From contig REDH01000072.1 in assembly GCA_007693585.1 (NCBI GenBank), positions 77,321-141,320 of the forward strand: a stretch of 64,000 bases of DNA, in the 5' to 3' direction. The stretch comes from Deltaproteobacteria bacterium (GTDB lineage Bacteria > Myxococcota_A > Bradymonadia > REDH01). Both the position numbers and the translations under genes were made by a program. A model generated the notes under the pieces. It worked only from the letters and a program-made list of their open reading frames with translations. It had not been told where the DNA came from and did not search any database. Within the stretch, counting starts at the first letter, position 1. Every line of letters begins with the position of its first letter. This document shows, one piece after another, positions 24,106 through 54,766 of this stretch.

Positions 24106-25338
24106 ATGCTCAAGAGATTCCTGAAAGCCCTGGGGCGAAGCGATCCACAGCCCCAGCAGGAGGGCCCCACATCCGGGGAAGCCCTGCTCGACGCCCTGCG
24201 CGAACCGCTGGCCAGCCGCCTCCGGGATTCCGAGCAGTCTCCCGACCACGCCCTCGCGGACCTGCTCGTGGCCATGGCCGAGAGCGACATCCCCGACGAT
24301 GCGACCGCCGAGTCGAGGCGCCTCTACGGACGCAGCCTGCTGCCCCTCCTCCTCGACAATGACGCAAGACCCCCCGGGCTCCAGCTCCGGGACGAAGACC
24401 TCGACCCCGCACGCGCTCTCCTGCGCTCCTTCTTCTTCCGCGAAGGAGACATGCAGGAAAAGGCCTCGACCCTGCTCAAGTTCATCGAGAAGCGCTTCGC
24501 CGCCGAACACTTCGGGCAGGCCGAGATCCTCCTCGAACTCTTCGACAGCGAGCCGGCCACCCGGCGACACAACGAGCTCAACCTCTTCTACGAATCCATG
24601 CTCGTGCGCACCAATGGCACACGACGCTCACCACCTGGCCCCGACACCCTCCGCGACTGGCAACAGATGGCCGAGCGCGGTGCACCGCTCCCGGAACTCC
24701 TCCGCTTCCTCCACCAACAGGCCGGCATCCGGTTCCACATCCGACGACGCAACCCCGACGAGACCCGCGCCTGGAACGAAGCACTCCCCGATCGCATCGA
24801 ACACCACGCGCGCTCCACCTTCCTCGAACGCGTCCCTCCCGCACGATGGAGACCCGCACCCGACTCCCTCGACGACATCCGCACCCTCCTCGAGAATGCC
24901 TGCGGACCGGACGACTTCCAGCGCCAGGTCGAACACCTCACCCGCTCCGCATACTTCATCTCCCGCACCGTCGGACGGACCGGATTCGAACCACTCCTCG
25001 TCCGCTACGTCTCCTGGATCCGGGAGACCTTCACCTCCCCCGCCATCGCCGTGCTGCCCAGCCTCCACCTCTCCGCCCTCGACGAGAACCTGCTCTTCGG
25101 CGACATCGTCCGCTCCATCGTCGCCGAAAGACTCTCGTCGACCACCCGTCCCGAACGGAAGTGCTCCCCCGACAACATCCCCGGTGCACTGACCGCCACC
25201 CGGAACGCCATCGCCGACCTCGCCATCGACGTCCTCCCCGAAGGCGACTACGATCTCGCCGGACTCGTGCTCGACCACGCCATCGGGTACACCCGGCAGG
25301 CCGACACGAGGCACGTCCGCCTCCACAGGCTGCTCTAG
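24106..25338 (+). CDS. Hypothetical cytoplasmic protein (411 aa), lying between the GltJ-like and giant TPR genes
   Basis: In-frame ATG at 24106 (MLKRFLKALGR...). The preceding 1 kb of the same ORF is Arg-rich antisense-like sequence overlapping the gene at 21713..23965 and is rejected. No recognisable motifs. Confidence 0.4.
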   Translation: MLKRFLKALGRSDPQPQQEGPTSGEALLDALREPLASRLRDSEQSPDHALADLLVAMAESDIPDDATAESRRLYGRSLLPLLLDNDARPPGLQLRDEDLDPARALLRSFFFREGDMQEKASTLLKFIEKRFAAEHFGQAEILLELFDSEPATRRHNELNLFYESMLVRTNGTRRSPPGPDTLRDWQQMAERGAPLPELLRFLHQQAGIRFHIRRRNPDETRAWNEALPDRIEHHARSTFLERVPPARWRPAPDSLDDIRTLLENACGPDDFQRQVEHLTRSAYFISRTVGRTGFEPLLVRYVSWIRETFTSPAIAVLPSLHLSALDENLLFGDIVRSIVAERLSSTTRPERKCSPDNIPGALTATRNAIADLAIDVLPEGDYDLAGLVLDHAIGYTRQADTRHVRLHRLL

Positions 25339-25361
25339 CCCCGCCCACTGCCCTCCCCACC

Positions 25362-28300: not shown

Positions 28301-30158
28301 AGGGCTCCGCGCCGAGCTCGAGGTCGCCCGCCACGCCGAAAGCCACGGGGAAGTCGTCCGCGTGCTGGAGGAACTCACGGGCCTCGTTCACGAGGACGGC
28401 GAACGCGCACGACTGTGCGCCGAGCTCGGGAGCACCCTCTATCATGATCTGGAAGAGTCCGAGCGGGCGCGACACTGGCTCGAGGAAGCGCAGCGGATCG
28501 ACCCGGACGGCGAGGGCCAGCGCTTCGAAGTCCTCACCGCCCTCGAAGCCATCTACGAGGACGTGGACGCCCCGGACGCCCTCCTGGAGGTCTACCGCCG
28601 CAAGCTCGAGGGAGCCGCCGACCCCGCGATGCGCGACGTCTTCCGCCTGCTGATGGCCACGGTGCTGTTCGAACGGCTGCACCGCCCGCGCGAGGCGCTC
28701 GCCCTCATCGACGAGAGCCTGCGGGACAGCGCCGCCAACATCCCCGCCCTCCGCCTGAAGGCCGAGATTCACGAGGACCAGGGGGATCCGTCGAGCGCGG
28801 TCCGAACGCTGCAGCACATCCTCGATCGCCCGGAACTCGATCCGTTCGAACGACAGGAGGTGCTGCGAAGCCTTGGCCGACTCGAGTGGAGGGAGCTGGG
28901 GGACCACGAGCGGGCTGCCAGTCGGTTCGAGGAGCTGCTCGCGCAGATCCCCGGGGACACGGACTGTCTGTCCGCGCTCAAGCAGATCCATGGCGCACGG
29001 GGTGCGTGGGACGACTGCGCGCGGGTGCTCTGGCGCGAGCTCGGCCTGCTCATCGGCCGCCTCGATGCATTCGAGGATGCCGGCGACGTGCTCGCCCTGC
29101 CCGAGTCGGACGTCCCGGCGCTGCTGCGCGGGACCTTCGCCCGGATTCTCGCGGAAGCCGCCGAGGTGCTGGCCAACGACAGCAACCGGGAGGAGCTGGC
29201 CGCGAAGCTCCTCGACCGGGCGGGCCAGCACGGGTCCAGCGAGCCTGCCGTGCTCGAGGCGCGCATCCGCGTCGGGCAGCGCCTCGACGACCACGCCGGC
29301 GTCGCACGCGCCGCCGAGCAACTCGCCGAACTGCTGCTCCTGAGCGAGGAGCGCCAGCAGCTTCAGGCGCTGGCCGCGGAGGCCTGGGAGCGCGCCGGGT
29401 TCGCCAGCCGGGCCGCCGCGCTCCGCAGCGCGGTCGCGTCCGCCGAGAGGGAGGGGAGTCGCCTGTCCCCCCATCCCGCCACTGTGTCCGGGCCGGTGGA
29501 GCGACCGCCCGTGGACGGGAAACACGGGGAGGACGCGCTGCGGGATCCGCAGATCGAAGCCGAGACGGCACGGAACGACCTTCGTGGGGATGACGAGGAC
29601 GTGGACGAGCTGGACGGATCGACGCCGGCCCCTGCACCGCAGGCGGGCACGCTCCACACCGCGACGGACGGAACCGACGGTTCGACCGCCTCGGTGGAGT
29701 CGTTCGACCCGGCGCGCGCGGGCACCGCGGAGCGATTGAGTCATCTGGATCGCCTGGCACGGTCGGAGCGGTATGCGGAGGCCCTGAGTGCGATCGAGTC
29801 ATGGCTTCCGATGGCGCGGGATCCGGTCCACCGCCGGGAGCTCCTGCTTCGGAAGGGGCGACTGCTGATCGATCGCAGCGGAACGGGACGGGACGCGATC
29901 CTCGTGCTCAAGGGCGCGCTGATCCTCGACGAGAATGCTGCCGATACGCGGTTCGAGCTGATGCGCGCGCACGCGCGGTCCGGAGAGTTCCGGCTTGCGA
30001 TGGAGCAACTGCGGGAGCTGTCGACGATTCTCGGGTCGGACCTGTTGTCGCTGGACGGGCTGGCGCCGGAGATCGATCGGCTGCGGGCGCTCGGAGAGCC
30101 CGCGGACGTGTCGCGGCTCGATCAGTGGGTGCGGGACGTGCGCCCATCGGGCGAGTGA
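25362..30158 (+). CDS. Very large (about 1,600 aa) cytoplasmic TPR-like helical-repeat protein with a central Pro-rich low-complexity linker. Possibly GltI/AgmK-like.
   Basis: No signal peptide (MPNATEDGARPPADALKL...). Dozens of Ala/Leu/Arg-rich helical repeat units typical of TPR-like solenoids. Pro-rich segment at about 27900-28280 with a 34-bp near-identical direct repeat (27966 and 28125). Confidence 0.5.
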   Translation: MPNATEDGARPPADALKLSIDFLFGRGFLTVRQQRLAHWGTLDELRMEVPDLRFPFDVQGGLHRFRQVRHHVHRLRYTLSENELARTLDAAADDISGFHAVQLRLAQGSLVLCAQVSLLSARGAIACRLAPAPALLDDPLTLQLVPVEYTTFGDLPLPAPLLLSELLGRLLHHARLQHPIPDWAPRLHGDVLQLRPSPMVLAGLFLPLGWKIPATERLTAETIDIRPGAIHILAAGRDGPHPSPHERHDVRDARSGRSAALALAGLEARAGLEATDQALFRGDLQNALDACRPIATSSAAPDVAVHRLLDLLLAAGTPEATAEASRIAGDRADRDPEDRIALQTLARLHPDDASITDRLLEALRAASMTPELILGAVATAESAMHRDHEDAGHRIASALRLAPRHPEALRLRIDHARRTGDLTSLEDTLRRRSSVAPTLPERIDHHLELARLALRRRGDAAEARAWLERARSLSPDTADIYTELAHAFLQEGRPADAVRALDTAATRYADAHDPAAAALARRRAATTWHQQLDQPDAALAELQRAWTLHPDPETAIELVDLAIAARRPDDALAPLQTALHTATAQPVPPDTLADLTERAARLDEARGRIDEAISRRRDLLHLRPADRANRSALERALVDAGRADEWVALHEELLDHCDPDEIPTLHASLARTLQETLDRPLRAAHHWRLVLTAQPDHHEALHRLRAIHADHQLWLELADALQAVIAEHPEHRAAPTLRAVAAEAASAGGDDTLAIDLARAAIAQHPEASAPWLAAASILPDEEAWHAAEQFADRTDDLPRAATLLRTLGDRAFTSSDGMRRAVRLYRRALLLVNDEDTRQRLRRAAEHCGMDPDRVLPPTATAPPRAQANSPAHDRTPPAPARDPSSAPPPARQPPAQQPPDDRAPTQHPSAPHALPPQTLANSPAPNRTPPEPAGDDESPAAPAGGAPGPRLVDTPPGGLDTDRPVDGAPPSTQARRIEGLRAELEVARHAESHGEVVRVLEELTGLVHEDGERARLCAELGSTLYHDLEESERARHWLEEAQRIDPDGEGQRFEVLTALEAIYEDVDAPDALLEVYRRKLEGAADPAMRDVFRLLMATVLFERLHRPREALALIDESLRDSAANIPALRLKAEIHEDQGDPSSAVRTLQHILDRPELDPFERQEVLRSLGRLEWRELGDHERAASRFEELLAQIPGDTDCLSALKQIHGARGAWDDCARVLWRELGLLIGRLDAFEDAGDVLALPESDVPALLRGTFARILAEAAEVLANDSNREELAAKLLDRAGQHGSSEPAVLEARIRVGQRLDDHAGVARAAEQLAELLLLSEERQQLQALAAEAWERAGFASRAAALRSAVASAEREGSRLSPHPATVSGPVERPPVDGKHGEDALRDPQIEAETARNDLRGDDEDVDELDGSTPAPAPQAGTLHTATDGTDGSTASVESFDPARAGTAERLSHLDRLARSERYAEALSAIESWLPMARDPVHRRELLLRKGRLLIDRSGTGRDAILVLKGALILDENAADTRFELMRAHARSGEFRLAMEQLRELSTILGSDLLSLDGLAPEIDRLRALGEPADVSRLDQWVRDVRPSGE

Positions 30159-41584: not shown

Positions 41585-41667
41585 CGGAGGAGTGGCCGAG
41601 CGGTCGAAGGCGGCGGTCTTGAAAACCGTTGTGCGAAAGCACCGGGGGTTCGAATCCCTCCTCCTCC
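41585..41667 (+). tRNA. tRNA-Ser (anticodon TGA)
   Basis: GGAGGAG acceptor with discriminator G. Anticodon stem CGGT/ACCG around loop CTTGAAA. Long variable arm. T-loop TTCGAAT. Confidence 0.75.
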
Positions 41668-41716
41668 GCTGAGCTGCTCCCCGTCTTTGACAAGTGAATG
41701 TCGGAACGATTCGTCA

Positions 41717-41806
41717 GGAGTGGTGGCCGAGTGGCTGAAGGCGCTCGCCTGCTAAGCGAGTATACGGGCAAAACCCGTATCGAGGGTTCGAATCCCTCCC
41801 ACTCCG
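41717..41806 (+). tRNA. tRNA-Ser (anticodon GCT)
   Basis: GGAGTGG acceptor. Anticodon stem CTCGC/GCGAG around loop CTGCTAA. Long variable arm. GAGGG-TTCGAAT-CCCTC T-arm. Confidence 0.75.
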
Positions 41807-41912
41807 CTGGTTTTCTCCGGTTCGGGAGGCGGTGTCGTGCCAGCCGATTCGCCGTTGACACCTTCGGGTGCGGCGAGTAGGAGCACGCTCCGCTTCCGGA
41901 CGGGAGCCCGAC

Positions 41913-41986
<74 letters not shown>

Positions 41987-42004
41987 CTGGACGAATCGAG
42001 GAGA

Positions 42005-42475
42005 ATGGGCGTGTGCAGTGACGCGGACATCGGGTTCATGCGTCAGGCGCTTGCGCAGGCGAGCGCTTGTCTTCCCGCCGGGGACGTTCCCGTCGGGGCG
42101 GTGCTCGTGCGAGACGGCGAAGTGCTGTCGGTCGGGCGCAATCGCCGTGTGGAGGAGGGTTCTCCCCTGCTCCACGCCGAGCTGGACGCGATCGAACGTG
42201 GAGCCCGTGCACTCGGCTCCTGGCGTCTGGACGCCTGCACCCTGTACGTGACACTGGAGCCGTGCGTGATGTGTGCGGGTGCGGTGCTGCAGTCCAGGGT
42301 GGGCCGGGTGGTCTATGGCGCGGACGATGCGAAGGCCGGTGCGGTCCGGTCACTGTATCAGGTGCTGGAGGATCCACGATCGCCGTTCTCCGTGAAGGTT
42401 TCGCGTGGCGTGCTGGCAGAGGAGTGTGCCGCCTTGCTGCGGTCGTTCTTTCGGGAGCGCCGGGGCGGGAAGTGA
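42005..42475 (+). CDS. tadA: tRNA-specific adenosine(34) deaminase
   Basis: FMRQALAQA...VPVGAVLV...HAELDAIE...TLEPCVMCAGAVLQSRVGRVVYGADDAKAGA are the CDA-fold H(A)E and PCxxC zinc motifs. The ATG at 42005 carries the RBS GAGGAGA and lies 19 bp after tRNA-Arg(ACG). Confidence 0.85.
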   Translation: MGVCSDADIGFMRQALAQASACLPAGDVPVGAVLVRDGEVLSVGRNRRVEEGSPLLHAELDAIERGARALGSWRLDACTLYVTLEPCVMCAGAVLQSRVGRVVYGADDAKAGAVRSLYQVLEDPRSPFSVKVSRGVLAEECAALLRSFFRERRGGK

Positions 42476-42504
42476 GTCTCGCCAGCCGAAGCCGTCGCGA
42501 GTCC

Positions 42505-42591
42505 GGAGGGGTGGCCGAGTGGTCGAAGGCGCTTGACTCGAAATCAAGTGTACGTTCACGCGTACCGTGGGTTCGAATCCCACCCCCTCCG
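42505..42591 (+). tRNA. tRNA-Ser (anticodon CGA)
   Basis: GGAGGGG acceptor. Anticodon stem CTTGA/TCAAG around loop CTCGAAA. Long variable arm. GTGGG-TTCGAAT-CCCAC T-arm. Confidence 0.75.
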
Positions 42592-42647
42592 CTTCGCGGG
42601 CCATCGAACGGTGGCCCCGAACGAATCGTGTCCGACATCACCCGAAT

Positions 42648-42734
42648 GGAGAGGTGGCCGAGTGGTTGAAGGCGCACGCCTGGAACGCGTGTAATCGGGA
42701 AACCGGTTCGTGGGTTCGAATCCCACCCTCTCCG
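42648..42734 (+). tRNA. tRNA-Ser (anticodon GGA)
   Basis: GGAGAGG acceptor. Anticodon stem CACGC/GCGTG around loop CTGGAAC. Long variable arm. GTGGG-TTCGAAT-CCCAC T-arm. Confidence 0.75.
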
Positions 42735-42813
42735 CTGTCGCGTCGCATTCCCGGCTCATCCCGGGCTGTGCGACCCCGGTTATGCCGGGCCCCGCGACGT
42801 ACGACCGTGAATT

Positions 42814-42844
<31 letters not shown>

Positions 42845-42993
42845 GTACGGCGTGTGCGGGGTCCGGCACCCCCCTTCGTGAGTGGCCCCGCGTACGATGC
42901 GCCCTTGTGCTTCCGACGCGGTCCATGCAGCCTGTGCTGGCCCCGGGGTCCCGCCCGGGACTCCACACGCCCCCCCCGGCCAGCGTTTCGCGC

Positions 42994-45228
42994 ATGTCCT
43001 ACGTCGTCCTCGCGCGCAAGTGGCGCCCCCAGAGCTTCGAAGACCTGACGGGCCAGGAGCACGTCGCCCGTACGCTCCGCAATGCCATCGAGCGGGATCG
43101 GGTTCCCCACGCACTCCTGTTCACGGGTGCGCGGGGAGTCGGCAAGACGTCGAGCGCGCGCATCCTCGCGATGGCGCTCAACTGCGAACGGGGACGGAGC
43201 CCGATCCCGTGCGGCGAGTGCTCGTCCTGCGTCGAGATCCAGCAGGGTCGCAGTACCGACGTGCTGGAGATCGACGGTGCATCGAACCGGGGCATCAACG
43301 AGATCCGCGAGCTGCGCGACGGCGTCCGCTACGCGCCGCAGCGGGATCGGTCCAAGATCTACATCATCGACGAAGTCCACATGCTGACGACGGAGGCCTT
43401 CAACGCCCTCCTGAAGACGCTCGAAGAGCCCCCGCCCCACGTGGTCTTCATCTTCGCCACGACCGAGGCGCAGAAGATCCCCGTCACCATTCTCAGCCGC
43501 TGCCAGCGCTTCGACTTTCGGCGCATCGGGCACCGGGACATCGTGGACCGGCTCGCGCACATCGTGCGGAGCGAGGGGATCGCGGTGGACGAGGACGTTC
43601 TCGGACTCATCGCCCGCCAGGCAGCCGGCGGAATGCGGGATGCGCTGAGCCTGCTCGATCAGGTGATCGCCTTCTCGGGAGACGGGATCGACATCGACAC
43701 GGTGAGCGAGATCCTGGGCGCGGCGGACCGCCGAAGACTGTTCGATCTGAGCGAGGCGGTGCTGCGGCGCGACCGCGAAGCGGCCCTCGACGTGCTGGAC
43801 GTCGTGATGCAGCACGGTACCGACCCGATCCACTTCACGGCGGAGTGGGTCAGTCACCTGCGCGACCTCAATGTGGTCGCTGCGGCACCGGACGCCCGTC
43901 ACCTCACGACCCTGACGGACAGCGAGCATGACGACGCTCTCGCCCAGGCGTCCGCGACGCACCCGAGCGTGCTCCATCGCGCGTTCGAGTGCATGGTGGG
44001 CGAGGCCGAGACGATCTCGCGCGCCGCCTGGCCGCGGCTCGTCCTCGAGATGGCCGTTCTCCGCCTCTGCGACATCGAGAGCGTTCACCGGGTGGAGGAG
44101 CTGATCAGCCGCCTCGAGCATCTGGCGGCCGGACATCGGCTTCCATCGGGCGCCGCGGCGGCTCCGGTCGAGACGGAGCCGCGGGACGGAGGGGGCGTCG
44201 GGCGAAAGGGTCCCCGTGGCCGTGCCTCGGCGGCCGGTGCCGCCCGACGAGAGCCGGGCGGGGAGACGGAGGAGGAGCCCTCCCCTGCGGATGCCCCCGT
44301 TGCTGCCCCGGCGGCCGATCCGCCTTCGCCGGCGGCCACGCACGTGCCCGCCGAAGCCCCCCCGGCCGACGCGGCGGCCTTGCCCGTGCACGGGGCCGTG
44401 GGAGGGAGAGCGGAGGAGCAGGTGTCGCCTGGTTCGGTGGACGCGTCCGGCCCGGGCGACGGCGGGGTCGGCGCGACAGCGCCGGAACGAATCATCGCCG
44501 ACGTCCGGGCGGAGGTCTCCGCGGGTCCTGTGGTTGCCACTTTCGCACCGGACGGTTCGTCGACGCCGTCAGGGCCGGACTGCGGAGAGGCGGAGGGAGC
44601 GGCGAACGCATCCGCCGCGGCGGGAAGCGTGTCGGGACCGCAGCCCTCCCCTGCCGCGCCGACGGAGCGCGACGCCGCGAGCCGCCGCGCCGCGGAGGAT
44701 GATGTGGACGAGCCGCTGCCGGAGGCAGGCATGGGCGCGGAGGCGTCGCCGGTGCGGGGCGAGGCCCGAATCACCGCGGGCCGAGAGGTGCCGGAGGGGG
44801 AGGCTCCCCGCGCGGCCAGCCTTGCGCTATGGCGGGAGGTCGTCGCGCTGTGGGATGAGCAGGGCTCTCCGGTCGGTCGGCTGCTGGCGCGCGGCTGGCT
44901 GCTGGACGCGGGTGGGTCGACGATCCGTCTGGCCCTCCCGGGGGCGCTGCTGGAGCAGCTTCGCCCGGGGGTTCTCGACGCGGTGGCTTCGGAGCTCGGA
45001 AGCCGGACGGGACGGGCGGAGCTGGGTATCGGCCTGGTCGAGGTGGAGGAGCTGACTTCGGACGAGCTCGACCAGGGGCTCCAGCTCCTGCGGCTGGAGG
45101 AGGAGGAGCGCGAGGCGCAGCGAGCGGCGATTCGGGAACGGATGGCGGGTCATCCAGCCGTTCGCGAGATTCTGGACACGTGGCCAGCCGCGCGGGCGAG
45201 CTACACGATCAACGAGGACGAGGCCTGA
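42994..45228 (+). CDS. dnaX: DNA polymerase III subunits gamma/tau
   Basis: [24 protein letters not shown]...[18 protein letters not shown] (Walker A) ...[10 protein letters not shown] (zinc module) ...IFIFATTE. Long Pro/Ala-rich tau linker. The internal start is preferred over the ORF start at 42907. Confidence 0.9.
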
Positions 45229-45275: not shown

Positions 45276-45599
45276 ATGGCGACGAGCAACAAGACCCTGG
45301 GTGGTATCGTCAAGCAGGCGCAGCGGATGAACCAGCAGATCGCGCGCATCACGGACGAGATGTCGGATCGGGAGGTGGAAGCCACGGCGGGCGGTGGTGC
45401 GGTCCTGGCGGTGGTCAATGGCCGCCAGCAGCTGGTTCGGCTGGACATCGATCCGGGCCTGCTGTCGCCGGACGAGGCGGAGACGTTGCGTGAGCTGGTG
45501 ATCACGGCGGTGAACCTGGCGATGGAGAACGCCAAGGAGATGATGAAGACGGAGGTGGACAAGGTGACGGGGGGCCTGCACCTGCCTGGGCTGTACTGA
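45276..45599 (+). CDS. ybaB: Nucleoid-associated protein YbaB/EbfC
   Basis: MATSNKTLGGIVKQAQRMNQQIARITDEM...AGGGAVLAVVNGRQQLVRLDIDP is the YbaB family pattern. RBS AGGAGG. Confidence 0.85.
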   Translation: MATSNKTLGGIVKQAQRMNQQIARITDEMSDREVEATAGGGAVLAVVNGRQQLVRLDIDPGLLSPDEAETLRELVITAVNLAMENAKEMMKTEVDKVTGGLHLPGLY

Positions 45600-45600
45600 G

Positions 45601-46212
45601 ATGCCGGACGGGCGTGATCCGATCACGGAGCTGATCAACCAGCTCACGCGGCTTCCGGGCATCGGCGAGCGGACGGCGGCGCGGCTGGCCTTCCATGTGC
45701 TGGATGGACCACCGGACCTTGCGGAGGCTCTGGCGTCGGCCCTTCGGGCGGTTCGGGAGCGGGTGGTCCGTTGCGGCACCTGTGGGCACCTGACGGAGGA
45801 GGACCCGTGTCGATTCTGTTCGAGTCCGCGGCGCGATCGCTCGCGGATCTGTGTGGTCGAGAGCACACCGGACCTGCTCGCCGTGGAGCAGACCGGTGAG
45901 TACGACGGCCTGTACCATGTGCTGCACGGGCTGATTCGTCCCCTCGAGGGCCGGACGCCGCGTGATCTCAACCTCGCGGGGTTGATGGTGCGCCTGCAGG
46001 CGGGGGGGATCGAGGAGGTGATCCTGGCGACGAATCCGAGCGTGGAGGGAGAGGCCACGGCGCTCTATGTGGCATCGCTGCTTCGGGGAACCGGTGTGTC
46101 CGTGAGCCGCATCGCGAGCGGGCTGCCGATGGGAGGGGAGCTCGAGTATGCGGATCGGGCGACGCTCGGGCGGGCGTTGTCGGCCCGTCGTCGGCTGGAG
46201 GGTGATCCGTAG
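45601..46212 (+). CDS. recR: Recombination protein RecR
   Basis: LINQLTRLPGIGERTAARLAFHVL (HhH), CGTCGHLTEEDPCRFC (C4 zinc finger), Toprim region. Canonical dnaX-ybaB-recR order. Confidence 0.9.
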   Translation: MPDGRDPITELINQLTRLPGIGERTAARLAFHVLDGPPDLAEALASALRAVRERVVRCGTCGHLTEEDPCRFCSSPRRDRSRICVVESTPDLLAVEQTGEYDGLYHVLHGLIRPLEGRTPRDLNLAGLMVRLQAGGIEEVILATNPSVEGEATALYVASLLRGTGVSVSRIASGLPMGGELEYADRATLGRALSARRRLEGDP

Positions 46213-46340
46213 TCGGCGCGAATGTTGCCGGAGCGCCTCCGGCTGTGGTAGGCGGGAAGGGCTGGTTCGGAATGCCGCTCCGTCGTGCCTGTGCACGGGT
46301 GTCGCGATTCCGCTGACAGGCGTCTCATGCGTGAGGATCC

Positions 46341-46826
46341 ATGGCTGCACAGATAGTGATCTTTGAGGAGGAGCAGAAGCGCCTCCAGGAGATTTGCGAC
46401 CGGCTGGGTCAGGAGTCCTTGAGCAAGGCGATCTTCCTGCTCGACAAGAATGGCCAGATTCTGGTGGAGAGTGGCGAGACGGCGCAGATCGACGTGACGA
46501 GTCTCGCATCCCTGGTGGCGGGCACGACGGCGGCGACGAGCAGCCTGGCGAAGCTCCTGGGTGAGGAGGAGTTTCCGGTGCACTTCCACGAGGGCAAGCG
46601 GGACAACCTGCACCTCTCTGTGGTGGCCGAGGAGTACATCCTGACCCTGATCTTCGATCAGCGGTCGAGCCTCGGGCTCGTGCGCCTTCGCGTGAAGAAG
46701 GCGACCGAGCGCCTGGTCGAGGTCTTCCGCGACCTGGCCGAGCGACAGGCGAGCGATCCGGGCAACAACATGTTCGGTGAGATCACCGACGACGATATCG
46801 ACAACCTGTTCAGTGACAGCTTCTGA
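46341..46826 (+). CDS. mglB: Roadblock/LC7-domain GTPase-activating protein MglB
   Basis: The whole length aligns with M. xanthus MglB from memory (QIVIFEEE...FLLDKNGQIL...TSLASLVAG...FHEGKRD...IFDQRSSLGLVRLRVKKA...EITDDDIDNLFSD). Confidence 0.85.
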   Translation: MAAQIVIFEEEQKRLQEICDRLGQESLSKAIFLLDKNGQILVESGETAQIDVTSLASLVAGTTAATSSLAKLLGEEEFPVHFHEGKRDNLHLSVVAEEYILTLIFDQRSSLGLVRLRVKKATERLVEVFRDLAERQASDPGNNMFGEITDDDIDNLFSDSF

Positions 46827-46896
46827 GCGGTCAGGCGTGCGGGTGCCACCCCACCGAGCCTGACACATTCCCCTTCAGGGTGCAGCCGAGGCCGGA

Positions 46897-47487
46897 ATGT
46901 CCTTCATCAACTACTCGTCTCGCGAAATCATCCTCAAGATCGTGTACTACGGTCCTGGACTCTGCGGGAAGACCACGAACATCAAGCACGTGTACGCCAC
47001 GACGAATCCCGACACCCGCGGGAAGCTCATCAGCCTCGAGACGAAGGCCGAGCGTACGCTGTTCTTCGACTTCCTCCCGCTGAGCCTCCCCGCGATCAAG
47101 GGATTCAAGACGCGACTGCACCTGTACACGGTGCCGGGTCAGATCTTCTACTCGGCGTCGCGCAAGCTCATCATGAAGGGCGCCGACGGCGTCATCTTCG
47201 TGGCCGACAGCCAGGAGGAACGCTTCGAGGCCAACCTGATCGCCCTCGATGACCTGAAGGAGAACCTCGAGGCCCACGCCCTCGACATCGAGAAGATCCC
47301 GTTCGTCATCCAGTACAACAAGCGCGATCTGCCCAACGTCACTTCGGTCGAGGAACTCCGCAAGGCCCTGAACCCCATGGGTGTGCCCGACTTCGAGGCC
47401 GCAGCCGCAGCCGACGGTGGGCCGGGGGTGTTCGAGACCCTCAAGGCCGTCGTGAAGATGATCCTCCAGGATCTGCGCAAGCAGTGA
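46897..47487 (+). CDS. mglA: Ras-like small GTPase MglA
   Basis: MSFINYSSREIILKIVYYGPGLCGKTTN...LYTVPGQ...IQYNKRDLPN is nearly colinear with M. xanthus MglA. Confidence 0.9.
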   Translation: MSFINYSSREIILKIVYYGPGLCGKTTNIKHVYATTNPDTRGKLISLETKAERTLFFDFLPLSLPAIKGFKTRLHLYTVPGQIFYSASRKLIMKGADGVIFVADSQEERFEANLIALDDLKENLEAHALDIEKIPFVIQYNKRDLPNVTSVEELRKALNPMGVPDFEAAAAADGGPGVFETLKAVVKMILQDLRKQ

Positions 47488-48488
47488 GTGATGGAGCAGC
47501 GGTATCGGGCCGGCGCGTCGGGCTCCTCCTGAACCCGAACTCGCGACGCAACCGACAGCAGCCCGATCGGGCGCAGCGCCTCGTGACCATGATCGGCCCC
47601 ATCGGGTCAGCGGAGGTCACGCAGCGGGCGCGCGATGTCCCGGATGCGATCGCCCGGCTGCTGGAGACCCGCCCGGACGTCATCGCCATCTGCGGCGGCG
47701 ACGGGACCAACCACCTCGCCCTGACCGCGCTCCGGCACCAACTGGGCGACGATGCCCTTCCCCCCGTCGCGTTCCTCCGCGGAGGAACCATGAACACCGT
47801 GGCCAACGGGCTCGGCATCACCGGCACGCCAGAGCATCTGCTGACCCGACTGATGGAGGCGCCCTACCCGCTCCCGGTACGCCCGGTCGGGCTTCTGGGC
47901 GTGCGCGACGACGTCACCACCCGCTATGGGTTCCTGTTCGGGACAGGCGTCATGGCCCGGTTTCTGGAACTGTACTACGAGGCGCCGGATCCGAACCCGG
48001 TGCACGCCGCGCGAACGCTGACGCGCGTGGTGACAAGCGTGGTCGCCGGTGGCGCCCTCGCCCGATCGCTCCTGCGCACCGAACGAAGCTGCGCCCTGTG
48101 CGACGGCAGCCCCTGGCTGCATGGTCCCACCCGTGGCATCCTCGCCAGCAGTGTTCCCGAGATCGGGCTCGGATTCACCCCCTTCCCCCGATGCGACGAG
48201 GTTCCCGGCCGGTTCCATGCCATCGGGCTGCTCGCCGGACCCACCGACCTCGTGCGTGCCCTGCCCAGCATCTGGCGCGGCAGCCACCCCGGCCGAGAGG
48301 GGCTGCCCGATCGCGTGGCCGGCCAGCTCCGGATCCGGAGCCAGGAAGGGCACGCCTGGGTCCTCGACGGCGACCTCTACCCCTGCCGAGGTGCGCTCGA
48401 TGTCCACTGGGATCAGTCCGTCTCGGTGTTCCAACCGGAACAGCGCAGCGCGCCGTCGACCATGGTTGACCGTCTCCGTTCACGCTGA
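47484..48488 (+). CDS. Diacylglycerol-kinase-catalytic-domain (YegS/LCB5-family) lipid kinase
   Basis: VGLLLNPNSRRNR...VIAICGGDGTNHLALTAL...RGGTMNTVANGLG is the DAGK_cat signature. The ATG overlaps the mglA stop (ATGA). Confidence 0.6.
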   Translation: MSDGAAVSGRRVGLLLNPNSRRNRQQPDRAQRLVTMIGPIGSAEVTQRARDVPDAIARLLETRPDVIAICGGDGTNHLALTALRHQLGDDALPPVAFLRGGTMNTVANGLGITGTPEHLLTRLMEAPYPLPVRPVGLLGVRDDVTTRYGFLFGTGVMARFLELYYEAPDPNPVHAARTLTRVVTSVVAGGALARSLLRTERSCALCDGSPWLHGPTRGILASSVPEIGLGFTPFPRCDEVPGRFHAIGLLAGPTDLVRALPSIWRGSHPGREGLPDRVAGQLRIRSQEGHAWVLDGDLYPCRGALDVHWDQSVSVFQPEQRSAPSTMVDRLRSR

Positions 48489-48563
48489 TACCCCGCATCA
48501 AGGTTCACCGAGGATCGGACGTGACCCATCACGTGTGCACAGCTAATTCTTCAGGATGTCCCG

Positions 48564-49331
48564 ATGAAATTGGAGTTCGCAGGCCAGACGGACGTTGGCC
48601 GCAAGCGTGGCCACAATGAGGACAACTTCCTCATTCTAGCCGACTACAACCTGTTCCTGGTGGCCGACGGGATGGGGGGACATTCCGCTGGTGAGGTCGC
48701 GTCGCTCATGGCCGTCGAGAGCGTGGCGGAGTTCTTCAAGGACACCGCCGAGGACCAGGATGTCACCTGGCCCTTCAAGCAGGACAAGGGCTTGTCCTGG
48801 GAGGAGAACCGCCTGTCCACAGGCGTGAAGCTCGCCAACCTCCGGATCCACGAGAGCGCGGCTTCCAACTCCGAACGACGAGGCATGGGGACCACCCTCG
48901 TCTGTACCTACTTCTCCCGAAAGAACGTCATCATCGGCCATGTCGGGGACTCCCGCGTCTATCGCATCCGGGATCGGAAGATCGAGATGCTGACCGAAGA
49001 CCACTCCCTCCTGAACGACTACCTCAAGATGAAGGAGCTCACGCAGGAGGAAATCGACAACTTCCCGCACAAGAACGTCATCGTGCGGGCCCTCGGAATG
49101 AAGGAGAGCGTTCAGGTCGATGTCATCACGGACAGCCCGCGCATCGACGACATCTACCTCCTCTGCTCCGACGGCCTTTCCGGCATGATCGAAGACCCGG
49201 AAGTGCTCCAGTGCGTGCTCGATGCCAACGGTGACCTCAAGGATGCCTGCCAGCGCCTCATCGACGCCGCAAACGCCAATGGCGGGGTCGACAACATCAC
49301 CTGTGCCCTGATCAAGGTCCTGCAGGTCTGA
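48564..49331 (+). CDS. PP2C-family Ser/Thr protein phosphatase
   Basis: GQTDVGRKRGHNEDNF...VADGMGGHSAGEVAS...RGMGTTLV...LLCSDGLSGMI...GGVDNITCALIKV are PP2C motifs. Confidence 0.85.
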   Translation: MKLEFAGQTDVGRKRGHNEDNFLILADYNLFLVADGMGGHSAGEVASLMAVESVAEFFKDTAEDQDVTWPFKQDKGLSWEENRLSTGVKLANLRIHESAASNSERRGMGTTLVCTYFSRKNVIIGHVGDSRVYRIRDRKIEMLTEDHSLLNDYLKMKELTQEEIDNFPHKNVIVRALGMKESVQVDVITDSPRIDDIYLLCSDGLSGMIEDPEVLQCVLDANGDLKDACQRLIDAANANGGVDNITCALIKVLQV

Positions 49332-49503
49332 TCGAGAGCCCGGGAGCGGGTCGGCCGCAAGCCAGGACACCGCAGGCAGCCACGTGTCCGGTTGGCGTGC
49401 TGCTCGGACCCTGCCCGCTGCGGCCCCTCCACAGGTCTCGGCGCCGCGGCCGCAACGGCCCGAAACATCTCCGCTGCCCGCTCACTCACGCTGGCCCGCT
49501 CCC

Positions 49504-50553
49504 TCAGCCCCAGCGCACCCCGCGGCTGGCCACCAGCACGCGCTGGCGAACCACGCCTTCGGCCACCGCGCCGTGAGACAGGACACTCTGCTCGACGCGA
49601 GCACCCTCGATCACACGGCAACCACCGCCGATGACCGTTCCGGACCCGATCACCGCTCCGGGTTCGACCCAGGCCCTGGACGACACGAACGCGTGGGGGC
49701 TCACCACGGCGCCACGTCCGATGCGTGTGGTGTCCCCGATCCAGCATCCGGATCCGTCCGGCGCACCGTGCGGCCAGAGGTCCCCGAGCAGCGAGGGCTG
49801 CTCGAGGACGAGGCGCGTCGCCTGCGCGAATCGTCGCGGGGTACCCAGATCGGCCCAGAACCCGTCGTGGCGATGGGCCGCGATCGTGGCACCCTCCGCC
49901 ATCGCCCGACCGATTCCGTGACGAATCACGCAGCCGTTCTCCCTGGGCAGCCGGTCGATCAACGAAGCGTCCACCACGGATATCCCGGCAAAGGTGACCG
50001 CATCGGAGGACTCCAGGTCCGGCGCGTACCAGGGCTCTTCGGGACCGGGAAGTTCCACGACGAAGTGCCCCTTCGGACCGAGACGCACCGGAGACTCTCC
50101 CGCGACCGCCGGCAGCACGACCATGGTGGCGAGAGCCGAGGTCCGCCGGTGGACCTTGACGAGTTGCTCGAGCGGAAAGTCGGCGACGACATCCCCGTTG
50201 ATCACGACGATGGGGCCTTCCGGCGAGCCCATCGCCTCCCAGACCCCGCGCAGGCCCCCGGCGGTCCCACGAAGATCCTGCTCCTCCTCGACGAGGAACT
50301 TCGGTGGGGGCGTTGCCGCGGTTCGCTCGATGCGTGCGGCCTCCTCCCGGGTCCACGCCCTGAAGAGATCCGCCTGCCGATGAACGTTGAGCCCGATTCG
50401 GTGAATCCCCAGCGTGGTGATGGCACGGGTCGCGAAGGAGACGATCGGCACGTCGACGAAGTGCAGCAGCGGCTTGGGCACCACGTCGGTCAGCGGACTC
50501 AGACGGGTCCCGAGACCGGCACACAGGAGGATGGCAGCAGCAGGGGAGGTCAT
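49504..50553 (-). CDS. Sugar-1-phosphate nucleotidyltransferase (MurU/GMPP-like) with a C-terminal left-handed beta-helix
   Basis: MTSPAAAILLCAGLGTRLSPLTDVVPKPLL is the NTP-transferase G-x-G-T-R motif. The C-terminus has hexapeptide repeats. The ATG overlaps the upstream kinase stop (ATGA at 50550-50553). Confidence 0.65.
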   Translation of the reverse strand: MTSPAAAILLCAGLGTRLSPLTDVVPKPLLHFVDVPIVSFATRAITTLGIHRIGLNVHRQADLFRAWTREEAARIERTAATPPPKFLVEEEQDLRGTAGGLRGVWEAMGSPEGPIVVINGDVVADFPLEQLVKVHRRTSALATMVVLPAVAGESPVRLGPKGHFVVELPGPEEPWYAPDLESSDAVTFAGISVVDASLIDRLPRENGCVIRHGIGRAMAEGATIAAHRHDGFWADLGTPRRFAQATRLVLEQPSLLGDLWPHGAPDGSGCWIGDTTRIGRGAVVSPHAFVSSRAWVEPGAVIGSGTVIGGGCRVIEGARVEQSVLSHGAVAEGVVRQRVLVASRGVRWG

Positions 50554-51638
50554 GATCGGCGAAATCCGGGGTCGACGTGCGCAAGCAGAGGGCGGAGTTC
50601 GAAGGGATCCCCCGTCGCGCTCAGCGCGGAGTCCACAGCACGGAGCGAATCCGGGATCCAGCGCAGGAAACCCGGATTGCCGCGCATACGGTCGATGAAG
50701 ACGAACCGCCCCGCATCCTTGAGCTTGCGCTGTACGGTCTGCAGGTGGAACGCCCTGTGGAGTTGCGCCTCGTTCCAGCCCTGCGCAAGGGGCGTCGCGG
50801 CCACCTCCCGACACCAGCGGTCGAGCTGTGCCTCGAACAGCGCCTCGGGCAGGGGCACGTAGCTGTCCCGCAGGAAGGCCACGGCGTCGTAGGGCAACGG
50901 GCCGAGCATGGCATCCTGAAAGTCGATGACCACCAGCTCCGGCGGCTCCCGGTCCGCCAGGACCATGAGGTTGTGGCTCTGGAAGTCGCGATGGATCACC
51001 GTCCGGGGAATCGTCAGCAGGGACTCCACCAGCGCATCGCACGCCTCGGCGAAGGCACTGCGCCAGCCGGGGTCGGGGGCCACACCCAGTTCCTGCTCCA
51101 CGCGCCACTCGAGATAGTGATCCAGCTCCCAGCGCAGGAGATCGCCGGTGAATGCGCGGCCGGAGATGACCCCGGGAGGCACGACGCTCGACGTTCGGCG
51201 CATGAACGAGAGGAGCTCGCCGACGCCCCACGAGTAGGCCGCGTCCAGGTCCGTGCCCTTCCCCGCCGTCGCCCAGCGGTCGAAGTCGGTGTCGCCGGCG
51301 TCCTCGAGCACGATCGCGCGCGACTCTTCGTGAACACCGTGAACATGCGGTACCCGGACACCGACTCTCTCCAGGAACGCAGCGACCTCGATGAACGGCT
51401 CCTCGGCCGTGCGACCGACCGGCGACGCACCGGCTTCGGACGCGACTTCTCCGGCGGCGGGCAGCAGCATGACGACCAGTTGTTCGTCCTCCACACGGGC
51501 GCGCACATAGCGCCGCGGGGACGCGTGTGCCGGCATCGCCTCCAGTGAACACGCATCGCGCTCCAGCACGGCTGCGATCGCTGCCGACGCCCGCAGGCAC
51601 AGTCGCTCCGCCTCCTCTCTCGACACCTCGGATGCCAC
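50550..51638 (-). CDS. Phosphotransferase (APH/ChoK-like) family kinase, AmgK-like anomeric sugar kinase candidate
   Basis: VIHRDFQSHNLMV is the catalytic HxDxxxxN, with a downstream IDFQD (DFG-equivalent). Coupled to the downstream nucleotidyltransferase. Confidence 0.6.
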   Translation of the reverse strand: MASEVSREEAERLCLRASAAIAAVLERDACSLEAMPAHASPRRYVRARVEDEQLVVMLLPAAGEVASEAGASPVGRTAEEPFIEVAAFLERVGVRVPHVHGVHEESRAIVLEDAGDTDFDRWATAGKGTDLDAAYSWGVGELLSFMRRTSSVVPPGVISGRAFTGDLLRWELDHYLEWRVEQELGVAPDPGWRSAFAEACDALVESLLTIPRTVIHRDFQSHNLMVLADREPPELVVIDFQDAMLGPLPYDAVAFLRDSYVPLPEALFEAQLDRWCREVAATPLAQGWNEAQLHRAFHLQTVQRKLKDAGRFVFIDRMRGNPGFLRWIPDSLRAVDSALSATGDPFELRPLLAHVDPGFRRS

Positions 51639-51693
51639 GACCTGCTTCTCCCGTCAGCCCGCCCTCGCTCCTTCATAGCCGGGCGATGCGGTC

Positions 51694-53280
51694 TTGCCCA
51701 GTTTCCCCCTCGGGTTGCCCCGCGCGCCCTTGCACTCCGAGGTGGTTCCTGCACATCTGCGGTTGGCCACCGCCTCCCCCGACCCTGTGCGCTCCGTGTC
51801 CACCCTGCTCTACGGCATCCACCTTCTCCTGCTCGGTCTGCTCTGCCTCTCGGCGCTGTCGCGGGTGCTGATGCTCTGGCCTGCGCGGCTGCGGCGAGCA
51901 GGTGGCGAACCCCCAGCCCCGCTCGCGGGTGATGACGTTCCGGAGGTGCTGGTGCAGTTGCCCCTGTACAACGAGCCTCTGGTCGCCGAGCGCCTTCTCC
52001 GGTCGTGCGCGCACCTCGACTGGCCCCGCCACCGGCTCGTGCTCCAGGTGCTCGATGACTCCACGGACGCGACGGCAGGGATCGTCGATGCCGTTTCGAG
52101 TGAGCTTCGGTCAAACGGGGTCCGGATCGATGTGGTGCGCCGTCGCACGCGCGAGGGATTCAAGGCGGGTGCACTCGCCGCGGGGCTGCGCCACAGCGAG
52201 GCTTCGCTGATCGCCATCTTCGATGCGGACTTCATCCCGCCCCGCGACTTCCTGCGCCGCATGGTCCCATCCCTCGACGATCCGGAAGCCGGACTGGTCC
52301 AGGCACGCTGGGCGCATCTGAACGCCGACCGCAATCTGCTCACCGCCGCACAGGCCGCGCTCCTCGACGGGCACTTTCAGGTCGAGCAGCGGGCACGCTT
52401 CCACCGGGGACACTTCTTCAACTTCAACGGCACCGCAGGCCTGTGGCGCCGTCAGGCGATCGAGGACGCCGGGGGCTGGCAGGCAGACACCCTCACCGAG
52501 GACCTGGATCTCAGCTATCGCGCCCAGCTCGCGGGGTGGCGGTTCGTGTACCGCGACGATGTCGCGGTCCCGGCGGAGCTGCCGACGACCCTCGATGCCT
52601 TCCGCACGCAACAACGGCGCTGGGCCAAGGGGGGACTGGAGACGCTGCGGAAGCTCGCGCGACCGATTCTGCGCTCCCGGTACTCCCTTCGTCTGAAGCT
52701 CGCTGCGCTGGCTCACCTCTCGGCCAACGCGAACTACATCCTCCTCGCGGGTGTGGCCATCACCCTTCCGCTGCTCGCGTTCATTCGTCCCGACCGCGCG
52801 TTTCCGGTCGTGCATGGCGGCATGCTCCTTGTGGGGCTCGGTGGGGCGGCGCTGTTCACCCTGCTCTGCCAGCGCACCGTGCCCTGGCGCCAGCGACTCC
52901 TTCGCACTCCGCTGGCGCTGCTGCTGGACGTCGGCATCGCGCATCAGAAGGCGGCCGCCGCCATCGAGGCGCTGCGCGGACGGCGGACGCCGTTCGTACG
53001 CACGCCGAAGTCGGGGGACGTCGGAACTCCGGCGGTCTCGACCCGAGAGTCCACTACAGCAGAGGATGTCGGGCGGGCGCCCGGCTTTCACGCGGAGCCC
53101 CTGTGGGCCCTGTGGAGCACGATGGGTGCGGCGGCTGCGCTCTCCTCGCCGGATCTGATTCACGGCGCCTTCCTGCTCGCGTTCGCGCTCGCCCAGGCGA
53201 CGGTCGGCCTGACCGCACGGCGCCACCGCCTCGAGGTGGCCGACACGGCCGTGCGATCTCCAGTGGCCGCAGGTGCCTGA
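51694..53280 (+). CDS. Family 2 glycosyltransferase (processive, cellulose/hyaluronan-synthase-like) with N- and C-terminal TM segments
   Basis: LVQLPLYNE...QVLDDSTD...AIFDADF (DxD) ...TEDLDLSYR...FRTQQRRW (QxxRW). Start position uncertain. Confidence 0.7.
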   Translation: MPSFPLGLPRAPLHSEVVPAHLRLATASPDPVRSVSTLLYGIHLLLLGLLCLSALSRVLMLWPARLRRAGGEPPAPLAGDDVPEVLVQLPLYNEPLVAERLLRSCAHLDWPRHRLVLQVLDDSTDATAGIVDAVSSELRSNGVRIDVVRRRTREGFKAGALAAGLRHSEASLIAIFDADFIPPRDFLRRMVPSLDDPEAGLVQARWAHLNADRNLLTAAQAALLDGHFQVEQRARFHRGHFFNFNGTAGLWRRQAIEDAGGWQADTLTEDLDLSYRAQLAGWRFVYRDDVAVPAELPTTLDAFRTQQRRWAKGGLETLRKLARPILRSRYSLRLKLAALAHLSANANYILLAGVAITLPLLAFIRPDRAFPVVHGGMLLVGLGGAALFTLLCQRTVPWRQRLLRTPLALLLDVGIAHQKAAAAIEALRGRRTPFVRTPKSGDVGTPAVSTRESTTAEDVGRAPGFHAEPLWALWSTMGAAAALSSPDLIHGAFLLAFALAQATVGLTARRHRLEVADTAVRSPVAAGA

Positions 53281-54766
53281 GTCCTGTGCTTCCGCCGAGA
53301 CACGGCGGCCCCCGTCCGCGGAGGTCACGCTGCTCGCCGTCTGTCTGCTGGCCATCCCAATCCTGGCATGGTGGGCTCCGGTCGGGCCCGTCTGGCACGC
53401 CGCAACGGGACCGGCGGCGCTGGTGATCCTTGGAGTCGCCTGTGCGGGGGCCCTCGTGCATCTGCGCATCGTGCTGCGCGGGCGCCCGGGGCTGTCGATC
53501 GCGGACCGGCGACTGCTGCTGGGCAGTGCCCTGGCATCCCACGGCCTGCTCTGGCCACTTCCCCCGCTCTTCAGCAACGACCTGTACCGGTACCTGTTCG
53601 ACGGCCGGCTTTCGGCGGCGGGACTCTCGCCGTTCGCCTACGCTCCGGCCAACCCGAAGGTGACCGATGTGTCCGCGGGGCTTCTCCCGGCGATCAACCA
53701 TCCGGAGATGGTGACCATCTATCCGCCGGTGGCGCAGGGGCTGTTCCTCGTGGCGGCGCTGCTCGGCGGCACGGTGCTGCTCTGGAAGGCGTTCGGGCTG
53801 GTTGCGCTGGGGGGCGCCGCGGCGCTGCTCGATCGCGGCACGGAGCGGCCCCTCGGGGTGCTTCTGCTGTCGCACCCGCTGGTGCTGATCGCGGTGGCCT
53901 CCCACGGGCATGTGGATGTGTTCGGGCTGCTCGCGATGGTCGCGGCGATGGCGGCGTGGCGCGCGAGGAGGCCGGTGCTGTCGGGTCTGGCCATCGCCGC
54001 CGCCGCGGGGCTGAAGATTTTCCCGCTGGGGTTGCCGATGGCGCTGACACCGCGTTTCGGAATCGCGCGGGCCCTGGCCGGCGTGCTGGTTGTCGGCGTG
54101 CTGCTCGGCCTGTCCTACTTCCCGCTGGTGCTGCGGGCCTCGGCGCCCCCCATCGGTTCACTCGGGGAGTACGCTGCCCGATGGGAGTACAACGCTGGGG
54201 CCTGGCGGGGCCTGCGGGCGGTCGCCTGCGGCGCGATGGCGCTCGGGGGTGCGCCGGAGGTGATCCGCGTGCCGCGCGAGCGGATACCGGCGCCTCTTCG
54301 GCCCGCGCCGAGGCCGGTGCACGGGGCGCTGGACGACGCAGTGTCGCTCTCGCGTGCGCAGCTCGCGTGGTGGCTCGCTCGTTCCGCGTCGTTGCTGGTC
54401 CTCGTGGGGACCCTTCTGGCCTGCGTGAGGAGCCGGCTGTCTGCGGCGGCGACCGCACGGTGGCTGCTGCTGATGCTGTTTCTCACCTCGCCGACCGTGC
54501 ATCCCTGGTACCTGCTCTGGCTTCTGCCGTGGGCGCTGCGCGACCGGTGCGTCCCCTCACTGGTGTTCTGCGCGACGGGGGTGGCGGGGTTCGGCGGTCC
54601 GGCGCTCGAGGCAGCGGGATGGGGCTGGAGGGATCCGGCGGCGATGGCGTTCGCGGTCCATGGCCCCGTCTGGCTCACGCTGCTCTGGACCGCTGTGCGT
54701 GCAGCAGGTATTCCACGTTGCCTCCGGGACCGTGGGTGTCGCAGTCCGTCCCGTCGAGGATCGTGA
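53273..54766 (+). CDS. Polytopic membrane protein, DUF2029/GT87-like glycosyltransferase candidate
   Basis: More than 10 predicted TM segments. NDLYRYLFDGRL...GLSPFAYAP resembles the DUF2029 signature. GLKIFPLGL. The start is uncertain and may be an internal Met. The 3' end overlaps tlyA convergently by about 90 bp. Confidence 0.45.
   Translation: MPESCASAETRRPPSAEVTLLAVCLLAIPILAWWAPVGPVWHAATGPAALVILGVACAGALVHLRIVLRGRPGLSIADRRLLLGSALASHGLLWPLPPLFSNDLYRYLFDGRLSAAGLSPFAYAPANPKVTDVSAGLLPAINHPEMVTIYPPVAQGLFLVAALLGGTVLLWKAFGLVALGGAAALLDRGTERPLGVLLLSHPLVLIAVASHGHVDVFGLLAMVAAMAAWRARRPVLSGLAIAAAAGLKIFPLGLPMALTPRFGIARALAGVLVVGVLLGLSYFPLVLRASAPPIGSLGEYAARWEYNAGAWRGLRAVACGAMALGGAPEVIRVPRERIPAPLRPAPRPVHGALDDAVSLSRAQLAWWLARSASLLVLVGTLLACVRSRLSAAATARWLLLMLFLTSPTVHPWYLLWLLPWALRDRCVPSLVFCATGVAGFGGPALEAAGWGWRDPAAMAFAVHGPVWLTLLWTAVRAAGIPRCLRDRGCRSPSRRGS

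Follow-up and report, generated by a model that had tools for sequence, protein, structure and literature searches.

A lipid-kinase-fold gene overlapping mglA in an uncultured Bradymonadia-like lineage: probably a facultative neighbour of an ordinary MglAB switch

A 64,000-nucleotide stretch of contig REDH01000072.1 (assembly GCA_007693585.1; hereafter, the window) carries at 46341–49331 four same-strand (+) open reading frames (ORFs) encoding the Roadblock protein MglB, the small GTPase MglA, a kinase with a DAGK_cat domain and a PP2C phosphatase, and the start of the kinase gene overlaps the end of mglA. The question raised by this locus is whether a lipid kinase joined so closely to a polarity GTPase belongs to the polarity switch, as was supposed in the first-pass annotation of this DNA, where lipid phosphorylation was proposed to be linked to pole identity. 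The comparative evidence gave no support to this proposal, because the association was found at none of 160 sampled mglA loci outside the clade to which the window belongs, and the kinase was present in only five of the nine lineages within it. We consider it probable, though well short of certain, that the locus holds an ordinary MglAB switch in a vertically inherited block with a variable slot, and that the kinase gene was brought to mglA by deletion and acts independently of MglA.

The content and coordinates of the four genes, as first annotated, were confirmed by the ORFs together with domain and family matches. The mglB gene (46341..46826, 161 aa) encodes a Roadblock/LC7 GTPase-activating protein for MglA and is separated by 70 bp from mglA (46897..47487, 196 aa); the lipid-kinase-fold gene (47484..48488) encodes a predicted soluble, two-domain protein of 334 aa from the DAGK_cat/sphingosine-kinase-like family, and the Stp1/IreP-type Ser/Thr phosphatase gene (48564..49331, 255 aa) follows after 75 bp (48489–48563), one less than the 76 bp initially given. 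In the public annotation of the same genes, TVR02561.1 is named MglA and TVR02562.1 diacylglycerol kinase.

Judged by its sequence, the mglB-mglA pair encodes a polarity switch of the ordinary group-1 MglA/MglB kind. MglB matched PF03259 (Roadblock/LC7) with 36.8 bits against a cut-off of 23 and aligned with Myxococcus xanthus MglB (6h5b) over residues 1–159 (E 9.4e-51), the C-terminal DDDIDNLFS helix included; its score with NF052242, a model that by its name was apparently built on the Thermus type, was below the cut-off (74.5 versus 200 bits). The alignment of MglA with its M. xanthus counterpart (6hjh; E 6.8e-84) is full-length, and the P-loop of MglA, GPGLCGKT at 19–26, fits the pattern GxxxxGK[ST] and is the same as that of M. 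xanthus MglA in the alignment. The arginine finger R53 stands beside the G2 threonine T54 in ERTLFFDF, the G3 motif is TVPGQ (78–82) in place of DxxGQ, and NKRD is also present. The P-loop, the arginine finger and TVPGQ are hallmarks of group-1 MglA (Wuichet and Sogaard-Andersen 2014, PMC4316618), and the TVPGQ criterion is given in PMC3000849 as well. The locus thus resembles the M. xanthus MglA/MglB module (6hjh, 6h5b, 6izw) in having mglB directly 5' of mglA, in the full-length similarity of both proteins and in retaining R53, TVPGQ and the MglB C-terminal helix; it differs from that module in its downstream neighbours and in belonging to an uncultured lineage.

Wide variation in the gene neighbourhoods of group-1 MglA was found in the phylogenomic survey of prokaryotic small GTPases just cited (PMC4316618). 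Conservation of the gene order in Myxococcota, the check named in the first-pass annotation, was sought at 160 other mglA loci fetched by their MglA (65–79% identical), 80 of them species-level genome loci and 80 metagenome loci (Joint Genome Institute, JGI). These loci belong to Myxococcota, Geobacter/Desulfuromonadales (Desulfuromonadota), Nitrospirota and Bradymonadales and form a broad sample among the matches listed rather than a set of nearest relatives; in 116 of them the sequence extends 1.5 kb or more beyond mglA, and the results refer to the fetched flanks. Homologues of the kinase, of the PP2C and of the NTP-transferase, APH-family kinase and GT2 glycosyltransferase encoded further downstream were found in the flanks of none of the 160 loci by tblastn (E ≤ 1e-2), and profile hidden Markov models applied to six-frame ORFs (E ≤ 1e-2) likewise detected neither the kinase family nor a Stp-like PP2C there. 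The JGI metagenome MglA matches listed were at most 70% identical, included no close relatives and had no kinase or PP2C neighbours, and other Myxococcota encode kinase homologues of about 40% identity among unrelated genes. A full-text literature search gave no paper tying MglA to a DAGK-family kinase or a PP2C, the matches mostly concerning the mglBAC galactose transporter.

The genes upstream of mglB are more widely shared at the sampled loci. The order dnaX-ybaB-recR stands 5' of mglB-mglA in many of them (L011–L086; Myxococcota, Geobacter/Desulfuromonadales and Nitrospirota), with recR directly before mglB in some and an insert of about 4 kb between them in others; recR and ybaB stand inverted in Bradymonadaceae and Microvenator.

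Relatives with MglA proteins 82–96% identical to that of the window were found in a larger protein database, and the gene surroundings were examined for nine MglA proteins of these relatives and for two close homologues of the kinase. Nine lineages, the window included (MglA 85–96% identical), share the order (secG-serS)-tadA-tRNAs-SRP RNA-dnaX-ybaB-recR-mglB-mglA-[slot]-PP2C, followed 3' of PP2C by the NTP-transferase and APH genes (often with UbiA) on the other strand and then by GT2. The slot holds the kinase alone in the window and in L001-3 (MglA 96% identical to that of the window), a lipoprotein gene, here called X, together with the kinase in L175/176 (87%), in L180/181 (87%) and in the P0055 contig, and X alone in L167-169 (88%), L174 (86%) and L177 (85%), and it is empty, with a 500-bp gap, in L170-172 (89%). 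PP2C is consequently found in 9/9 lineages, X in 6/9 and the kinase in 5/9. Genes for mglBA in different surroundings were found in L173 (MglA 85%) and L178/179 (82%). The kinase gene is thus not confined to this genome, so that the outcome by which the first-pass annotation would have been refuted, an unrelated neighbour occurring in this genome alone, applies only in part; the kinase is nonetheless a facultative, clade-restricted neighbour.

The X proteins have lipobox signal peptides and PQQ_2/BamB-type beta-propeller matches, and they evolve fast, the copies (L175 4477–5499; L177 7612–8748; L174 8168–9292; L167 7924–9063; L180 7933–9384) being 23–29% identical to one another. The X gene starts 14 bp 3' of mglA in L177 and overlaps mglA by 4 bp in the P0055 contig, where the X/kinase junction is also a 4-bp overlap. 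The kinase gene lies next to mglA only where X is absent, that is, in the window and in L001, the nearest relative, and in L001 it starts at an ATG of its own, 72 bp beyond the mglA stop; because X intervenes in the other kinase-bearing lineages, the direct mglA/kinase overlap is unique to the window. Sequence comparison revealed no X remnant in the window.

A further component of the region downstream of mglA was recognized in the relatives. A conserved block about 85–110 nt long (85–95 nt for its core alignment) follows mglA in L167 (7700–7810), L170 (7685–7794), L174 (7857–7967), L175/176 (L175 4152–4263) and L180/181 (L180 7858–7969), in all cases on the + strand, with an exact 17-mer common to all. 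The structure predicted by RNAalifold has 30 pairs, of which 9 show compensatory double changes, and Rfam gave no match to the element even at E ≤ 10. A covariance model built from these five loci matched L178/179 (L178 7352–7463, +) with 90 bits, 105 nt after mglA, at a locus outside the training set and with entirely different neighbours; the model had no match in the window, in L001-3, L173 or L177, or at any of the 160 other sampled loci, and no remnant of the element was seen in the window. Across the six sampled loci that carry it, counted as five lineages, the element lies 80–270 nt 3' of mglA. Since it is present in the differently placed L178/179, it travels with mglA and not with the slot genes, and by its position the predicted structure marks the boundary between mglA and the next gene. 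It may act in the 3'-untranslated region of mglBA, be a small RNA, or serve as the leader of the gene that follows. This by-product of the analysis, a conserved predicted structured RNA just 3' of mglA in the relatives, is perhaps of more use than the idea of a kinase serving polarity.

How, then, did the overlap in the window arise, and what does it imply for expression? The junction letters are cagGTGAgt, with the kinase GTG start at 47484 and the mglA TGA stop at 47485–47487 (GTGA junction 47484..47487, +). The 4-bp overlap of stop and start first reported was retained in our analysis, and its reading as ATGA was replaced, the ATG at 47491 being out of frame. The N-terminal strand RRVGLLLNP of the kinase is conserved, the Pfam match and the homologues begin there, and GTG 47484 is the sole canonical start that keeps it, because the next in-frame starts (codons 34 and 36) would remove it. 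The only Shine-Dalgarno-like motif 5' of this start is a weak, poorly spaced AGGA 12 nt upstream, in contrast to mglB, mglA and PP2C, each of which has GAGG or AGGA 3–7 nt upstream of its start (for mglB, GAGGA 3 nt 5' of the ATG). A sequence scan detected no terminator-like site on the + strand, and a promoter scan confined to the sigma-70 type detected no such site in 45500–49600.

Overlaps of 4 bp between same-strand genes are a common operon junction and unremarkable alone. Co-expression and co-transcription of mglA and the kinase gene in the window genome are nevertheless plausible from these signals: the GTGA overlap, the weak and distant Shine-Dalgarno motif and the lack of a terminator-like site make read-through transcription with translation by termination-reinitiation a plausible arrangement. 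Alternatively, there may be no translational coupling, the kinase being transcribed from a promoter within the 3' end of mglA with the GTG overlap incidental, or being translated from an unrecognized start codon. The 72-bp spacer and own ATG in L001, which indicate that independent expression was the recent state, would agree with this, as would a GTG start with a poorly spaced AGGA; however, the promoter scan, within its sigma-70 limits, gave no candidate, and no other canonical start preserves the conserved strand, so that we regard the absence of coupling as unlikely.

The sequence of events that we favour can be outlined as follows. The housekeeping block including mglBA and, beyond the slot, the PP2C gene (stp) would have been inherited vertically by one uncultured Myxococcota/Bradymonadia-like clade, with an ancestral slot that likely consisted of the structured RNA element, the BamB-like lipoprotein X and the DAGK/SphK-fold kinase. 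The lineage leading to the window and L001 would then have lost the RNA element and X, most simply by deletion, which would have placed the kinase gene against mglA; in the window only, the spacer would have shrunk further, until the sole usable start was the GTG overlapping the mglA stop. Transcripts begun at the mglBA promoter would now read through into the kinase gene, the kinase would be translated by coupled termination and reinitiation, and its role would most likely be the phosphorylation of a membrane lipid (diacylglycerol-, ceramide- or sphingoid-like) in envelope lipid metabolism, apart from MglA. The data show directly the gene identities, the junction, the variable slot and, in the sample, the lack of the association outside the clade; four further parts of the outline we infer, namely, that a deletion and not an insertion took place, that the genes are co-transcribed, that the kinase acts on a lipid and that it does so without MglA. 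The mglA/kinase overlap is thus most likely a secondary juxtaposition after deletion. The 12-kb block is still collinear among close relatives, and the adjacency of PP2C, kinase and mglBA is therefore expected from shared ancestry alone; moreover, X and the kinase are each missing from several lineages that have kept mglBA with high conservation, which shows that neither is an obligate partner of the switch. Two lessons may be drawn from this locus, that a 4-bp overlap can come from a recent deletion between unrelated neighbours and that synteny among close relatives is no evidence of shared function.

Several observations weigh against this outline. The kinase occupies the same slot in five of the nine lineages, and the chained 4-bp overlaps in the P0055 contig indicate that an mglBA-X-kinase operon may be old in the clade, so that a functional tie peculiar to this clade is conceivable. 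The slot kinases are mutually 36–44% identical, no closer than to non-slot homologues, and in a neighbour-joining tree they do not form one resolved group, the window copy lying on a long unresolved branch. With such low identities and such a tree, both the putative orthology of the slot kinases and the preference for deletion over independent insertion are judged from position.

The same observations could be read as a clade-specific extension of the Mgl module in which the kinase, and perhaps PP2C, work with MglA, for example, through a polar patch of anionic phospholipid or phosphosphingolipid by which polarity proteins are recruited or released. In eukaryotes, lipid kinases are under the control of Arf and Rho GTPases, and a demonstration that the kinase works with MglA would provide the first link of a bacterial Ras-like polarity switch to lipid phosphorylation, echoing that eukaryotic coupling. 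The coupled expression suggested by the overlap in the window, the slot position of the kinase, the chained overlaps in one contig and the constant presence of PP2C 3' of the slot would all fit. The comparative evidence argues against it, and we hold this extension to be distinctly improbable: besides the lack of the association at the 160 sampled loci and in the literature searched, the kinase is missing in 4/9 lineages that keep mglBA at 85–89% identity, the exported-lipoprotein gene X separates it from mglA in 3/5 kinase-bearing lineages (the RNA element, too, in 2 of those 3), and between the two closest genomes it diverges far faster (54% identity) than MglA (96%) or MglB (87%). The constancy of PP2C in a syntenic block, together with its absence from the other sampled mglA loci, reads as shared ancestry. 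A broader version, in which mglBA, the structured RNA, the BamB-like lipoprotein, the SphK-fold kinase and Stp form a larger unit through which the polarity GTPase would be coupled both to the phosphorylation of envelope lipids and to Ser/Thr dephosphorylation, with the window as its most compact form, where mglA and the kinase are translationally coupled, seems to us slightly less credible again.

The known operon in which a pair resembling MglA/MglB is stably accompanied by a kinase is the actinobacterial conservon (CvnA-D; PMC4316618), in which a small GTPase and a Roadblock protein are encoded beside a kinase gene in a highly conserved neighbourhood. The resemblance is limited, since the conservon combines a group-2 MglA with a histidine kinase, whereas here a group-1 MglA is accompanied by a lipid-kinase fold in a facultative neighbourhood.

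As to the kinase itself, the first-pass label of YegS/DAGK lipid kinase was upheld for the DAGK_cat domain and abandoned for YegS. PF00781 (DAGK_cat) was matched with 46.9 bits against a gathering cut-off of 23.6, and membership in the YegS/Rv2252/BmrU group was rejected, the scores being far below the cut-offs of TIGR00147 (25.8 versus 118.65 bits), PRK13054 (15.9 versus 284) and PRK13057 (34.6 versus 274). The protein is in fact below every NCBIfam lipid-kinase cut-off, and Pfam gives no family for its C-terminal domain. An AlphaFold2 (AF2) model made from 55 homologues (pLDDT 90.9, pTM 0.88) has a two-domain fold whose best PDB match by Foldseek is human sphingosine kinase 1 (SphK1; E 5.4e-20, TM 0.73), followed by an Enterococcus DAGK-domain protein, DgkB (4.4e-18) and YegS (4.1e-17); NAD kinases were matched at about 1e-10, approximately 10 orders of magnitude worse than lipid kinases, and that assignment was rejected. 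The likeness to SphK1 (4l02, 3vzb), Staphylococcus aureus DgkB (2qv7) and Escherichia coli/Salmonella YegS (2bon, 2p1r) consists in this two-domain fold (E 5e-20 to 1e-16, TM 0.64–0.74), the GGDG nucleotide-binding loop and a conserved D-G near the C-terminus, whereas the window kinase is just 14–18% identical to them. The GGDG loop (G71 G72 D73 G74) and D295-G296 are invariant across the family in the alignment of homologues, and the protein therefore looks catalytically competent.

Reported substrates of bacterial members of the superfamily are ceramide for CpgB, phosphatidylglycerol for YegS, and dihydrosphingosine (PMC10331486). Caulobacter crescentus CpgB, compared here by its description rather than its sequence, is likewise a soluble bacterial lipid kinase with GGDG, and its clade is separate from YegS and human ceramide kinase (hCERK) (PMC10331486); as regards its setting, no Spt, bCerS or CerR sphingolipid-synthesis genes were seen in the annotated parts of the window.

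The family to which the window kinase belongs has more than 1,000 matches of about 312–335 aa, mostly unnamed metagenome sequences, and the few named ones come from Myxococcota; among the matches listed, all homologues but one are at most 42% identical to the window kinase. One Myxococcota homologue (P0074) bears the source label "sphingosine kinase", and a group represented by P0021 and P0027 is 50% identical to the L175 slot kinase. This Myxococcota-wide family of uncharacterized SphK-fold kinases is a second by-product that may prove more useful than the polarity idea. At the other mglBA locus, a second kinase of the family is encoded about 6 kb 3' of mglA (L178 13222–14160; L179 13118–14056), its start touching the moeA stop. 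L176 and L179 share assembly GCA_046766235.1, and if this assembly represents one organism, that organism carries two mglBA loci together with a pair of kinase paralogues. The GC content at third codon positions of the window kinase gene (0.83) is like that of its neighbours, and nothing therefore suggests recent horizontal transfer, a possibility that was set aside.

The divergence of the kinase could also be taken as decay in the window lineage, with selection relaxed after the loss of a partner, X, and the gene heading for loss as in the four sister lineages. The window and L001 kinases share 54% identity, compared with 77–96% for dnaX, ybaB, recR, mglB, mglA and PP2C (RecR and YbaB 77–80%, PP2C 87–92%), and the long branch in the tree and the weak translation signals point in the same direction. 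Yet the 334-codon ORF is intact, every family-invariant residue is kept, GGDG and D295-G296 among them, the AF2 model is confident, and the neighbouring NTP-transferase and APH proteins diverge equally fast (56–58%); we therefore judge decay very improbable.

The phosphatase at the 3' side of the slot, which is 62–92% identical throughout the nine lineages, exceeded the cut-off of NF033484, the Stp1/IreP equivalog (249.7 versus 230 bits), and matched PF13672 (60.7 bits) and also PF00481. Its gene has its own AGGA Shine-Dalgarno motif. It resembles the Stp1/IreP PP2Cs of Gram-positives in family score, size and the DGMGGH and DG motifs and differs from them in having no adjacent Hanks-type kinase gene here and in its Proteobacteria-like host.

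The surroundings of the locus in the window are core housekeeping genes (gap, pgk, secG, serS, tRNAs, tadA, SRP RNA, dnaX, ybaB, recR ... pckA). Immediately upstream lie, all on the + strand, the small signal recognition particle (SRP) RNA gene (42781–42873), dnaX (42907–45228), ybaB (45276–45599) and recR (45601–46212). Just 5' of dnaX, tadA is flanked by five tRNA genes and the small SRP RNA (41586–42873), and the order tRNA-tadA-tRNA-SRP RNA-dnaX is repeated across the clade; since the tRNA gene at 41913–41986 overlaps the start of the longest tadA ORF (41978), the tadA start is probably further 3'. Far upstream, a 1770-aa ORF with multiple TPR repeats (24846–30158) lies near a change of sign in the GC skew (about 28–30 kb); ORF picking in the first 30 kb of the window was crude, and the strands there may be wrong.

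Downstream of PP2C, a divergent gene group common to the clade occupies 49504–54766. It begins with the NTP-transferase gene, whose product has a hexapeptide-repeat C-terminus (49504–50559, −), and the APH-family kinase gene (50550–51638, −), which overlaps it by 10 bp, and continues with a gene for a 528-aa GT2 glycosyltransferase (51694–53280, +) with a GT21 (ceramide-glucosyltransferase-family) match; the NTP-transferase/APH/GT2 order is the same in L001, L167, L170, L174, L175, L177 and L180. The UbiA gene found in most relatives is missing from the window. After GT2, the window has a 497-aa ORF without a Pfam match, and in L177 the gene 3' of GT2 gives a weak GT87 match. Taken together, these genes resemble a cluster for envelope sugars or glycolipids.

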